NCBI GenBank assembly: GCA_963776275.1
Contig: CAVZMI010000021.1
Coordinates: forward strand, 32,001 to 96,000
Source: Ignavibacteriota bacterium
GTDB taxonomy: Bacteria > Bacteroidota > Ignavibacteria > UBA10030 > CAVZMI01
Direction: 5' to 3'
Length of the DNA stretch: 64,000 bases
The notes beneath the pieces were generated by a model. That model searched no databases. It had not been told where the DNA came from and worked only from the letters and a program-made list of their open reading frames with translations. Of this stretch, positions 42,277 through 44,263 are shown one piece after another. Position 1 is the stretch's first letter. Each line of letters starts with the position of its first letter. Made by a program: the position numbers and the translations under genes.

Positions 42277-43053
42277 TTACCGCCGCTCACTATTTTGTCG
42301 CTGAATACTTTCTTTTGAAATGACAACATTTCTCACAACAGCCCGGTTTCTTCCGAGCGGTTCAAGAGTTGTACCATTCAGTGTGAAACGAATCCCTCCG
42401 GCATTTCCAAGCGTGACAGTAAATTTTTCTTTTGCTGTCCATGCGTACTTCGCTTTTGGAGGGAAGAGATATTCTTCGGTGCGTTTTCCGTCGATGATAA
42501 TACTCAACCAGACCGAATCACTAGTGCTTGAAATGAGGTGCAGGCTATCCTGGGTAGCCCGGGAAGCCGCCGTCTCGACGGGTTTGTGTAATACCTGTTG
42601 TGGAGTTGATATTCGTTCGGTTTCCTTCACTACATCATCAAATGCTATTTGACGCACCGGTTGAGAGTCTGATGAATGAACGAAAATATATATACCGATG
42701 AGCCCAAGTAGTACAAGTATGACCGCCGAGATAAGAATTTTCGTGGATCTCGGCCATTGTTGCGATACTGTGGGCCCTTCCTGTCGGTCCGGCTTCACCG
42801 GTTCGGGTGCAGGTTCAAGTCTCTTTCCAAGAAAGAGATCATATCGCTGGAGGGCTTCAACCGGATTCAGGCCGACGCTGATTGCATATTCTCTTATGAA
42901 TGCGCGAATATAGGTCTGCTGAAGCGTTTCAAAGTTTCCCTGTTCGAGAGCTTCAAGAAAGTGGATGTTGATACGGGTCATCAAGGCGATTTCATTCAGA
43001 CTGATCCCCTTGGTGACGCGTTGTTTCTGAAGTTCTTCAGCAAACCAGTTCAT
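42277..43053 (-). CDS. RodZ-like HTH-TM-DUF4115 protein
   Basis: HTH ..FLEALEQGNF..YIRAFIREYA; TM; LGNAGG. Confidence 0.85.
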   Translation of the reverse strand: MNWFAEELQKQRVTKGISLNEIALMTRINIHFLEALEQGNFETLQQTYIRAFIREYAISVGLNPVEALQRYDLFLGKRLEPAPEPVKPDRQEGPTVSQQWPRSTKILISAVILVLLGLIGIYIFVHSSDSQPVRQIAFDDVVKETERISTPQQVLHKPVETAASRATQDSLHLISSTSDSVWLSIIIDGKRTEEYLFPPKAKYAWTAKEKFTVTLGNAGGIRFTLNGTTLEPLGRNRAVVRNVVISKESIQRQNSERR

Positions 43054-43077
43054 GTATAGGCTGAATTTTTCGTGAAG

Positions 43078-43120
43078 AAAAACGCCAAAAGTATTTTATA
43101 TTCCCGGATACTTTTGGCGT
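43078..43120 (-). terminator. Intrinsic terminator downstream of the tRNA locus
   Basis: 13-bp stem ACGCCAAAAGTAT/ATACTTTTGGCGT followed by a T-run on the minus strand. Confidence 0.65.
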
Positions 43121-43182
43121 CATAAATTCTGACTCTGAGACTTGCGTTTCTTCGAACACATTAATGCATTACAAAAAATATT

Positions 43183-43255
43183 GTCGGAACATCCCAACGT
43201 CGGGCAGGCGGGATTTCCTACCCGTTCATCAATGGCTCGGGATAATCCATGATCC
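43183..43255 (-). pseudogene. Degenerate tRNA-Pro 3' fragment with two inserts
   Basis: GTCGGAAC [16 nt] GGCGGGATTT [~27 nt] AATCCATGATCC, versus intact AACCCGCGACCC. Confidence 0.6.
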
Positions 43256-43315
43256 TATTTTAATATTTCTCTGACCGGATCTATCCGACGAAGTTTCGAC
43301 ATCAGTCGAAACGTA

Positions 43316-43398
43316 GTCGGAACGGCGGGATTTTCCGCCGTAGGCGGATCCGCCTCACCGAACCATAATCCTTAGCGGAGAACCCGCGACCCATTGAA
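43316..43398 (-). pseudogene. tRNA-Pro 3' half with a 46-nt insert in the T-loop
   Basis: GTCGGAACGGCGGGATTT [46 nt] GAACCCGCGACCCATTGAA, one mismatch to the intact gene. Confidence 0.85.
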
Positions 43399-43425
43399 TA
43401 TCATTTTGTATTATGAAACTTCTTG

Positions 43426-43499
43426 TCGGAACGGCGGGATTTGAACCCGCGACCCCTTGAACCCCATTCAAGTGCGCTACCGGGCTGCGCTACGTTCCG
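43426..43499 (-). tRNA. tRNA-Pro(GGG), CCA not encoded
   Basis: CGGAACGTAGCGCAGCCCGGTAGCGCACTTGAATGGGGTTCAAGGGGTCGCGGGTTCAAATCCCGCCGTTCCGA folds as a cloverleaf. Confidence 0.96.
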
Positions 43500-43741
43500 C
43501 TTAAATTAATTTTTCAATATACAATCGCTTTTTATGTTTCTTGATTTCTTTCTCTCGTTTCATTGCATCACTGCGATTCACGAAGTCTTCAGTGTACATT
43601 AACTTCTACGGTTGATCCGACTTTGTCGATTGAACCTGTCCGTTATTATGTCTCTGAAGTCTCCTTTCCAAATCGTTCGTTTGCCCTACATAATAATTTC
43701 CATTTTTTATACTTCGTAATATGTAGACAAAAAAAGACATG

Positions 43742-43840
43742 TTCAATTGCGCTACCGGGTCCCGACCTGACGAAGTTAGGGCGCGGATTCTCGTCCCGTT
43801 CCGTTGTAGACGGAACGGGGCGGAACTGCGCTACGTTCCG
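43742..43840 (-). pseudogene. tRNA-Pro 5' half with a 66-nt insert in the D-loop
   Basis: Minus strand CGGAACGTAGCGCAG [66 nt] CCCGGTAGCGCAATTGAA, one mismatch to the intact gene. Confidence 0.85.
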
Positions 43841-43852
43841 CTGAATATATCA

Positions 43853-44263
43853 TTACTGGAGTTTGACAAGCAATGACTCGAGGAATTCTTTCATCTCGAT
43901 GAGATCAGAATGAAGCTGTTCGTCTTTAACCGGACGTTTCTGTGGAGTGGAAAGGAGTTCAAGTTGTTCACCTTCATTTTCGTCATGATATGAAAGGAGA
44001 ACCTGTTTCGCTCCCTCGATCGTATATCGCTCTTCACGAAGCAGTTTCTTGATATACAGTATTAGTTTGATATCCCGATTCGTGTAGATGCGATTGCCGG
44101 CCCGATTTTTTGCCGGCTTCAACTGCTCGAACTCTGATTCCCAATACCGAAGGACATATTGTTCGAGATCGGTCAACTTGCTGACCTCACTGATCGAATA
44201 ATACAGCTTCTTAATCCCGAGCTGTTTCATAACGTTATCATCCGAATAATGATAATGGCTCAT
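43853..44263 (-). CDS. MerR-family HTH regulator
   Basis: KLYYSISEVS..VLRYWESEF..LKPAKNRAGNRIY. Confidence 0.92.
   Translation of the reverse strand: MSHYHYSDDNVMKQLGIKKLYYSISEVSKLTDLEQYVLRYWESEFEQLKPAKNRAGNRIYTNRDIKLILYIKKLLREERYTIEGAKQVLLSYHDENEGEQLELLSTPQKRPVKDEQLHSDLIEMKEFLESLLVKLQ

Follow-up and report, generated by a model that had tools for sequence, protein, structure and literature searches.

A tRNA-Pro gene of an Ignavibacteriota bacterium, probably occupied by a decaying miniature nuclease cassette of a tRNA-linked family

How does an intact tRNA gene come to lie inside a second copy of itself, one that is parted at the anticodon loop and enlarged in both its D-loop and its T-loop? 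The question is raised by a locus on the minus strand of a 64,000-nucleotide (nt) stretch of DNA from an Ignavibacteriota bacterium (contig CAVZMI010000021.1 of assembly GCA_963776275.1, positions 32,001 to 96,000), the whole of which we call the window. Here, at positions 43316 to 43840, between a gene for a merR-family regulator and a rodZ-like gene, two halves of a tRNA-Pro gene enclose an intact tRNA-Pro(GGG). The answer that we favor is that the tRNA-Pro(GGG) gene is probably occupied by a decaying miniature selfish nuclease cassette, one of a family that homes to tRNA genes.

Read on the minus strand, the locus runs from the 5' half with an insert in its D-loop, through a nuclease open reading frame (ORF), the full tRNA-Pro(GGG) and a 26-nt trailer, to the 3' half with an insert in its T-loop (Table 1). 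An earlier note on this DNA, made from its letters alone, had placed the outer halves at 43840-43742 and 43398-43316 around a 343-nt insert (43741-43399) carrying the intact tRNA, with both halves ending at the anticodon loop, the outer copy beginning 12 nt past the merR stop codon, and each half differing from the inner gene at one base. Direct reading of the sequence bears this description out, including the mutual complementarity of the two differences, C27>A and G43>T. The same note had seen one hairpin of 66 nt in the D-loop and one of 46 nt in the T-loop; the lengths stand (46/47 nt for the latter), and each insert is made of two hairpins rather than one. What it had overlooked is that the 343-nt insert, besides its tRNA, holds an ORF for a GIY-YIG nuclease that fills most of it. 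This ORF begins with an ATG at 43740-43738, immediately past the anticodon-loop position, and ends with a TAA at 43503-43501, 1 nt ahead of the inner tRNA, which is the one tRNA that ARAGORN calls in the whole window (43499-43425). Identity between the tRNA-Pro copies at the locus runs for no more than 18 nt, and the 525-nt stretch gives an RNA-fold z of -4.3, a value that is suggestive only.

The nuclease ORF matches Pfam PF01541 at 66.5 bits against a cut-off of 22.6 (E 2.7e-18), and its matches in the PDB are the UPF0213 proteins 1zg2 (BH0048; E 3.5e-9) and 1ywl (EF2693; E 3.5e-7). According to the accessible part of a 2006 classification, UPF0213-type proteins are the minimal stand-alone prokaryotic Slx1-like nucleases (Dunin-Horkawicz et al., PMC1564403). 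In an alignment of 17 nuclease sequences, including that of the window, residues Y4, Y15, G17, R25, H29 and E61 are invariant. We take the invariant Y, Y, R, H and E to be the catalytic residues. The window's copy carries a single in-frame TAG at 43608-43606, where TGG has become TAG in a column that holds tryptophan in at least 90% of the aligned sequences; because a nearly invariant tryptophan codon has been lost to a stop, we regard this copy as a pseudogene, the relic of a gene whose reading frame is intact in relatives, among them G002 and G140, in which the ortholog adjoins tRNA-Pro. The nuclease has 79 amino acids, of which the Pfam match spans residues 2-70 of the 77 aligned, as compared with 96-107 amino acids in its PDB relatives, and no DNA-binding region for a long specific target lies beyond the catalytic domain in these 79 residues. 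With a bare catalytic domain, the choice of site must therefore come from something else.

The window's own genome (G000) is a draft metagenome-assembled genome (MAG) of 38 contigs with 5.3% contamination, and we compared its merR-rodZ interval with those of relatives, as the earlier note had advised. In 17 of the 30 relatives' loci that we fetched for the merR/tRNA-Pro site, merR is followed by tRNA-Pro(GGG), a conserved synteny. The comparison genome of the same genus (G001), whose merR is 99% identical to that of the window, has at the same site an uninterrupted tRNA-Pro(GGG) that begins 12 nt past merR. The 5' flank and the 3' trailer hairpin of this empty site match the outer halves in the window, and its tRNA is 100% identical to the inner copy. 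A relative represented in a peat metagenome likewise has a merR that runs into a D-arm without a D-loop insert. Thus both occupied and empty alleles of the same tRNA-Pro site are present in close relatives. Orthologous nuclease genes (47-62% identity) occupy the merR/tRNA-Pro site in 5 of the 29 other fetched loci, which come from four families; G001's best match to the window's nuclease, 48% identical, lies elsewhere in its genome, and in a further relative, G002, the site holds 5' units only and no 3' half. In one fetched locus (L024, from G017), the first 40 nt past merR, ahead of tRNA-Pro, carry a run of GGTTAA repeats. The earlier note had offered, as one of two explanations, a mini-element carrying a replacement tRNA that entered the ancestral gene. 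In view of the empty site in G001 this is supported in essence, except that the ancestral gene cannot simply be equated with the outer copy.

The complementary changes at positions 27 and 43 do not go back to the resident tRNA. The empty-site tRNA of G001 carries C27:G43, and not one of the 277 genomes in our set for the order has an intact tRNA-Pro with the ATTGA..TCAAT stem (A27:U43); for these reasons we rejected A27:T43 as an ancestral resident allele. Nor is the pair replicated in relatives, since G002 lacks the 3' half and the two strands in G042 are not complementary. By a rough estimate, the chance that one substitution in each half would fall on the same pair and complement each other is about 0.3-1%. 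The A:T pair may have come with the cassette, may have arisen later under a pairing constraint, or may be due to chance.

The window locus is one of several. There are 13 GIY-YIG matches in G000, and eight copies at five loci, the window's Pro(GGG) locus included, adjoin tRNAs with partial copies. At Pro(TGG) the tRNA is followed by a nuclease gene and then by a 3' part with a 46-nt T-loop hairpin, and Ser(CGA) has a tRNA, a nuclease gene and a partial copy in a 3'-only unit. The Ser(GGA) locus consists of a full-length copy with inserts in both D-loop and T-loop, a nuclease gene, a duplicated leader and the intact tRNA. The Met locus (C10:40586-42065) continues past tRNA-Met as a tandem array of four units, each 349 nt long and 100% identical to the others. 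Every unit contains, besides a terminator-like hairpin and a GIY-YIG gene, a copy of tRNA-Met with a 15-nt hairpin in place of the D-loop; in the last of these copies the T-loop is replaced too. As judged from these sequences, the cassette family appears to consist of a stand-alone GIY-YIG gene of about 80 codons, of the UPF0213/prokaryotic Slx1-like type, placed in the same orientation between an intact tRNA and partial copies of it.

Comparison of the cassettes between G000 and G001 shows that they turn over fast between congeners. The flanks are 96-97% identical, and the nuclease genes only 69-78%. At Pro(TGG) the comparison reveals a cassette with an internally deleted nuclease gene (69% identity) together with an extra 471 nt, and at Ser(GGA) a cassette that has lost its upstream copy and the N-terminus of its nuclease.

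Four GIY-YIG genes of G000 do not lie beside tRNAs (C20:185312, C8:55574, C22:3651 and C26:29314). They form a separate, well-supported clade and may represent the housekeeping form of the family. The same genome also has arrays of tRNA fragments: upstream of tRNA-Gly(GCC), at C18:93425-93928, lie five tandem 86-nt repeats with no nuclease gene, each made of tRNA positions 1-26 followed by a TCCCGATGAAATCGGGA hairpin, and similar fragment arrays are found at Gly(TCC), Lys(CTT), Thr(CGT) and Leu(TAA). Exploded tRNA copies are present at Arg(TCT) and at a Met locus on contig C15.

Beyond this genome, a nuclease homolog is found in 189 of the 277 genomes of the order, in arrays of up to 13 copies. 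Among the best 29 loci of the order, 25 have a tRNA on the same strand, and the remaining four are cut by contig ends. We extended the survey to named genomes with one single protein as query, which reached only its closer relatives; the phyla covered include Ignavibacteriota, Bacteroidota, Patescibacteria, Zixibacteria, Marinimicrobia, Omnitrophota, Thermodesulfobacteriota and Pseudomonadota, and the cultured carriers include Flavobacterium beibuense F44-8, Maribellus sediminis and Algoriphagus winogradskyi DSM 15360. In 62 of 80 such loci the nuclease gene has a tRNA no farther than 300 nt away, and all 62 of these pairs are co-oriented. Where a same-strand tRNA lies within 500 nt (64 loci), 55 loci hold fragments of that very tRNA, counted as exact matches of at least 11 nt, and in 53 of the 64 the fragments stand on the side of the nuclease gene opposite to the tRNA. 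The fragments are 5' parts where the tRNA is downstream of the nuclease gene and 3' parts where it is upstream, and the partial copies vary in which part of the tRNA they keep.

The nuclease lineages also follow the identity of their tRNAs. On a tree of 118 nuclease sequences the tRNA isotype changes 32 times, as compared with a mean of 58 and a minimum of 53 in 200 shuffles, and clades linked to the same tRNA cross phyla. Since the tree is short (77 columns), has most of its forks poorly resolved and contains related rows that share labels, the shuffle overstates the contrast and the test is supportive rather than decisive. On this tree, the GIY-YIG genes linked to tRNA-His in an Omnitrophota locus (L122) and a Planctomycetia locus (L125) are nearly identical, with end branches of 0.09 and 0.14, which reflects either a recent transfer or a binning error. 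Our search of the literature found nothing that links bacterial UPF0213/YhbQ-type GIY-YIG genes to tRNA genes or fragments, within a coverage that left out most subscription journals and supplements, and a family of cassettes homing to tRNA genes is apparently undescribed.

The inserts in the loops of the partial copies are themselves conserved in an unusual way. The D-loop insert recurs as a module upstream of nuclease ORFs at Pro(GGG), Pro(CGG) and Pro(TGG), and we aligned 14 sequences of it from 13 genomes. Its skeleton (TTCCG, hairpin 1, CGAGAATCCNCG, hairpin 2, CGGGA) is fixed while the sequences of the two hairpins are entirely different between genomes. Pairing is nevertheless kept: 93.5% of cells in the alignment are paired, against 78.6% in shuffles (none of 500 as high) and at most 56% when the partners are slid, and 15 of the 23 pairs show double changes. 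A third helix joins the first bases of the module to the acceptor 5' strand of the partial copy and tracks acceptor variants, with 98.6% of cells paired. The alignment holds 18 G.U cells and five A.C cells (p 0.011), an excess by which folding of the sense strand is favored, most simply as RNA. Judged by its aligned sequences, then, the D-loop insert is a conserved RNA motif supported by covariation. The earlier note's second explanation, a maintained structured RNA, is accordingly supported for this insert, but not for the split tRNA as a whole. A covariance model of the module (R1) finds it in 21 of 151 genomes, among them new cases with a nuclease gene, and in four genomes (G036, G189, G026 and G085) a solo module scoring 74-79 bits lies 27-64 nt upstream of an intact tRNA-Pro with no nuclease gene. 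The T-loop module consists of a hairpin with a large loop followed by a TCCGCC-TAC-GGCGGA hairpin, and it is related to an element of about 64 nt that the same genome has in three other tRNA copies, two of Ser(GGA) and one of Met, where it is flanked by TTC and AATCC; the T-loop insert is a reusable module as well. The loop inserts of the window match no Rfam family, and neither do those of six related loci.

In other phyla the partial copy lacks whole arms and has, in their place, hairpins with stems of the form TCCCG..CGGGA. This palindrome has 164 matches in G000, as compared with 5-7 for control words, and 32% of them lie within 1 kb of a tRNA where 2.6% would be expected. All but one of the 277 genomes in the set for the order (276) contain it, with 20-180 occurrences per strand as compared with 0-24 of the reversed control, and it doubles as a terminator stem. 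We considered these hairpins as a signal for the nuclease and rejected the idea, as they are present also in genomes without a close nuclease homolog.

Two further claims of the earlier note did not hold. The ends of the 343-nt insert had been described as imperfect inverted repeats; their alignment score is reached in 811 of 2000 shuffles and their duplex energy in 65 of 500, and with the former count we rejected a transposon or miniature inverted-repeat transposable element with terminal inverted repeats. For the -10-like element said to accompany the inner tRNA, no sigma-70-like site was called on the tRNA strand (one on the other strand, 1.9 expected), a blank that is presumably weak since the lineage may use another promoter type. 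Intron-aware ARAGORN, a check that the note had proposed, calls the inner gene alone, and at a threshold of 80% it returns spurious Arg calls.

Taking together the anatomy, the empty site in a congener, the link of the family to tRNAs and their partial copies, the lineages that track isotype, the arrays, the turnover and the covariation of the D-loop module, we propose the following course of events. The nuclease would break the DNA of a tRNA gene at loop-coding positions, much as the phage nuclease SegB does at a motif resembling the T-loop; alternatively it would make a structure-specific, Slx1-like cut on extruded hairpins, and a bare Slx1-like catalytic domain may reasonably be supposed to recognize structure instead of sequence. 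Repair by recombination with a copy that bears the cassette, with the tRNA-derived arms as homology, would then copy in the nuclease gene together with the missing part of the tRNA, such that an intact tRNA is always regenerated, and unequal repair would yield tandem arrays. As the cassette carries a spare intact copy, the function of the tRNA would survive the insertion through that copy and not through splicing. The nuclease gene would be transcribed from the tRNA promoter, which the co-orientation of all 62 pairs fits. The loop inserts, placed where the partial copies encode the D-loop and the T-loop, may serve several ends: they would destroy the target in the partial copy and so prevent recutting, they would leave it no unbroken homology with the intact gene of more than 18 nt and so hinder loss of the cassette by recombination, and they would keep it from taking on the fold or the function of a tRNA. 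In the RNA, the D-loop module may sequester the duplicated acceptor 5' strand.

Several points weigh against reading the locus as a homing cassette. No member of the family has a known cleavage activity or target, and the protein, as predicted, is a catalytic domain only. Were the tRNA itself to contain the target, the spare copy, being intact, would still be open to cutting, which would call for low expression, protection or continual repair. Both co-transcription and an RNA role of the modules are our inference; the solo D-loop modules would fit a role in host RNA as well as they fit decay; and because the TCCCG..CGGGA hairpins are generic in the order, they are not readable as nuclease sites. 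Either one insertion or two could have produced the nested layout, the nuclease tree and its shuffle carry the limits given above, and independent contigs confirm only part of the locus.

The nested layout is where a different history has to be taken seriously. On this account, which we consider possible though less likely than not, the inner tRNA is the resident and no single outer gene was ever split at its anticodon loop: a 5' cassette, made of the D-loop module, the partial 5' half, the nuclease gene and a copy of positions 1-15, entered the D-loop, and a separate 3' remnant, made of positions 58-76, the trailer, the partial 3' half and the T-loop module, entered the T-loop. The identity of the empty-site tRNA of G001 with the inner copy and not with the outer halves speaks for it, as does parsimony, by which two insertions and no substitution would be needed instead of the three insertions and two substitutions required if the outer copy were the resident. 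So do the 5' units without a 3' part in G002, the 3'-only units at Pro-TGG, Ser-CGA and Met in G000 and in G014, and the fact that the start of the 3' part differs between genomes. It leaves unaccounted for, however, that the halves end exactly on either side of the anticodon loop, and the low estimated chance of a complementary A27:T43 suggests that the halves were once one gene or still pair; a single replacement by recombination with a donor allele would explain all of this at once. If instead the host keeps the structures for its own use, the module-bearing partial copies would be cis-acting elements, for example a leader for the processing, stability or expression of tRNA-Pro and the nuclease mRNA, and the nuclease gene a passenger or partner. 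The covariation and G.U bias of the D-loop module, its pairing with the acceptor strand across acceptor variants, the high-scoring solo modules upstream of tRNA-Pro, the strict co-orientation of nuclease and tRNA and the z of the 525-nt stretch are all in its favor. We nonetheless find it rather unlikely, given that the module has a patchy spread (21 of 151 genomes) and is absent at this site from a congener whose tRNA is normal, that the partial copies keep different tRNA parts, and that tandem arrays, truncated copies and pseudogenes resemble decaying selfish DNA.

A host function for the protein itself, namely that a small GIY-YIG enzyme encoded in tRNA operons repairs or processes tRNAs or their genes, would agree with the co-orientation and closeness to tRNAs across phyla, with the conserved catalytic residues and with the occurrence, described in the accessible part of PMC1564403, of a prokaryotic Slx1-like domain fused with a TrmH-like tRNA methyltransferase. 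It is improbable for a gene whose presence differs between congeners, whose identity falls to 69-78% where the flanks are 96-97% identical, which exists in nonsense and truncated copies, in arrays of up to 13 and in near-identical copies in different phyla, and which is flanked by partial tRNA duplicates. Very improbable, in our judgment, is that the locus goes back to an island with a tyrosine integrase, to a group I intron, or to a split or multi-intron tRNA of the archaeal type spliced to a working product, even though fragments beside tRNA genes are the usual scar of integrases, bacterial group I introns in tRNAs likewise interrupt the anticodon loop, and the pieces here keep all four stems. 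Between merR and rodZ we found no ORF for a tyrosine or serine recombinase, the GIY-YIG match being the sole protein-family match there, so that the earlier note's contrast with tyrosine-integrase elements was apt; integrases, moreover, are not known to leave 5' fragments and D-loop inserts. A search of Rfam with cmscan over 42900-44100, at E up to 10, returned no ribozyme or intron family, only the tRNA and four sub-threshold chance matches. The sequence that is neither coding nor tRNA is too short for a group I core, intron-aware ARAGORN calls no outer gene, and with an intact copy in the middle no splicing is needed. Least probable of all is an artefact of MAG assembly at a repeated tRNA locus. 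The draft state and contamination of G000 and the frequency with which related loci stand at contig ends would allow for one, and the check by spanning reads that the earlier note had called for succeeded in part: a 139-nt contig from one read run (X1) bridges 43316-43442 with one mismatch, and thereby the inner tRNA, the spacer and the 3' half, while no read set spans the locus and 43506-43824 is uncovered. X1 may be the source sample of the window and is thus not necessarily independent. In all, the contigs of four read runs match the stretch only in places, for the most part within the tRNA, where they stem from many organisms. The copies are however too short in their identity (18 nt or less) to mislead an assembler, and the occurrence of the same architecture in more than 12 other, independent genome assemblies, including one on an 862-kb contig, argues against an artefact.

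The closest known system would, by analogy, be SegB, a free-standing GIY-YIG homing endonuclease in the tRNA gene clusters of phages T4 and T6 (PMC2330249, in its accessible part). As far as the available portion of a further paper goes (PMC13096335), SegB cuts inside tRNA genes at RAWTSGAAC, a T-loop-like motif, and its nuclease activity is needed, together with recombination proteins, for the tandem amplification of units of tRNA and segB. Like the cassettes, it is a GIY-YIG gene beside tRNA genes, with a statistical enrichment near tRNAs, and the tandem units of tRNA and nuclease that it drives resemble the arrays seen here (PMC13096335, same portion). It differs in coming from phages and in extending C-terminally past its catalytic domain, the C-terminally truncated form being non-toxic, and nothing like the partial tRNA copies with hairpin modules that flank the cassette gene is described for SegB in that portion (PMC13096335). 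By description, the cassette nuclease is set apart as a bare UPF0213/Slx1-like domain of about 80 amino acids on bacterial chromosomes. The UPF0213 proteins 1zg2 and 1ywl share its sequence family and its stand-alone catalytic domain without auxiliary domains. Prokaryotic Slx1-like proteins have been predicted to act in double-strand-break repair, and in the part of that work accessible to us tRNA is mentioned only for the TrmH-like fusion and not for gene neighborhood (PMC1564403). Like SegB, the cassette nuclease gene is free-standing, an ORF between tRNA copies with no ribozyme family around it.

Elements with a tyrosine integrase insert into tRNA genes, which are made whole again by a copy of the 3' part that the element brings along. 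As with the cassettes, the target stays functional through the missing part that is supplied, and displaced tRNA fragments mark the site. The cassettes differ in having no integrase and a unit of only 0.3-0.4 kb, in duplicating 5' parts as often as 3' parts, in breakpoints that include the D-loop, and in partial copies that carry conserved structured inserts. Homing-endonuclease genes also occur inside group I introns in the anticodon loops of bacterial tRNA genes, where, as here, a nuclease gene interrupts a tRNA at the anticodon loop and the function of the tRNA is kept; the cassette has no ribozyme (Rfam), and a spare gene copy takes the place of splicing. Archaeal split, permuted and multi-intron tRNA genes (PMC3218864, as far as accessible) share with the locus a tRNA gene in pieces, interrupted at loop positions. 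The locus differs from them in belonging to a bacterium, in having an intact copy between the pieces and in an outer gene that intron-aware ARAGORN does not call.

Downstream of the outer 3' half the locus bears further traces. The trailer hairpin that overlaps the outer 3' end also follows the uninterrupted tRNA of G001, and is therefore the native 3' flank. Beyond it lies a third, older tRNA-Pro 3' fragment, which contains the only terminator-like site on the minus strand (43173..43216) and is homologous to a 3' fragment in another genome of the set (G164, locus L061). This fragment suggests an older event at the same locus and, together with the turnover of the cassettes, several rounds of such events.

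Table 1. Features of the tRNA-Pro(GGG) locus and its neighbors, in window coordinates
Feature	Position	Strand	Basis and remarks
merR-family regulator gene	43853..44263	-	ORF; Pfam MerR_1 E 5.8e-19; stop at 43855-43853
Outer tRNA-Pro 5' half, part a (positions 1-15: acceptor 5' strand and D-stem 5' strand)	43826..43840	-	Identical to inner tRNA; repeat family D5
D-loop module, 66 nt, two hairpins	43760..43825	-	R1 score 86.9 bits; no Rfam family
Outer 5' half, part b (rest of D-loop, D-stem 3' strand, anticodon-stem 5' strand with C27>A, first anticodon-loop base)	43742..43759	-	Direct reading
GIY-YIG nuclease ORF, 79 codons and stop, pseudogene	43501..43740	-	ORF; Pfam PF01541 E 2.7e-18
Intact tRNA-Pro(GGG), sole functional-looking copy	43425..43499	-	ARAGORN; Rfam tRNA 64.1 bits
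Trailer/spacer 3' of inner tRNA, 26 nt	43399..43424	-	About 77% like the trailer of the third fragment (43165-43190); repeat family D4
Outer 3' half, part a (last anticodon-loop base, anticodon-stem 3' strand with G43>T, variable loop, T-stem 5' strand)	43381..43398	-	Repeat family D3
T-loop module, 46/47 nt, between TTC and AAAT of the T-loop	43334..43380	-	Covered by X1 contig with 1 mismatch
Outer 3' half, part b (end of T-loop, T-stem 3' strand, acceptor 3' strand)	43316..43333	-	Identical to inner tRNA; repeat family D2
Trailer hairpin overlapping outer 3' end	43284..43321	-	Inverted repeat I5, 17-nt arms, 88%
Third, older tRNA-Pro 3' fragment (end of T-loop and T-stem 3' strand, 16-nt insert, acceptor 3' strand), then T-run	43173..43216	-	Repeat family D2, 83%
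rodZ-like gene, downstream neighbor	42277..43053	-	ORF; Pfam HTH_25 and RodZ_C

tRNA genes are the classic landing sites of islands borne by integrases. The locus described here points to a second tenant of these genes, much smaller and very widespread, which relies on a nuclease where the islands have an integrase, and which preserves the tRNA through a spare copy. If this is true, a large family of "hypothetical" GIY-YIG proteins of about 80-100 amino acids (UPF0213), from Bacteroidota to Patescibacteria, would gain a function and a target, and many of the partial tRNA genes and tandem tRNA-fragment arrays that confuse annotation would be explained. The principle of SegB, a nuclease that amplifies tRNA loci, would extend from phages to bacterial chromosomes. 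The D-loop module would add a new RNA motif supported by covariation. A bolder version, which we put forward as speculation, is that minimal Slx1-like GIY-YIG proteins drive an unrecognised class of mobile elements. The proteins would recognize tRNA genes by structure, as extruded hairpins or cloverleafs, cut them in the loops, and rebuild the tRNA from the parts carried by their 0.3-kb cassettes. The partial tRNA would be an RNA scaffold whose halves pair (hence A27:U43), from which tRNA-processing enzymes would release the nuclease mRNA and the tRNA, and which would shield the cassette from its own nuclease and from deletion. The cassettes may offer a testable case of homing guided by structure rather than by sequence.

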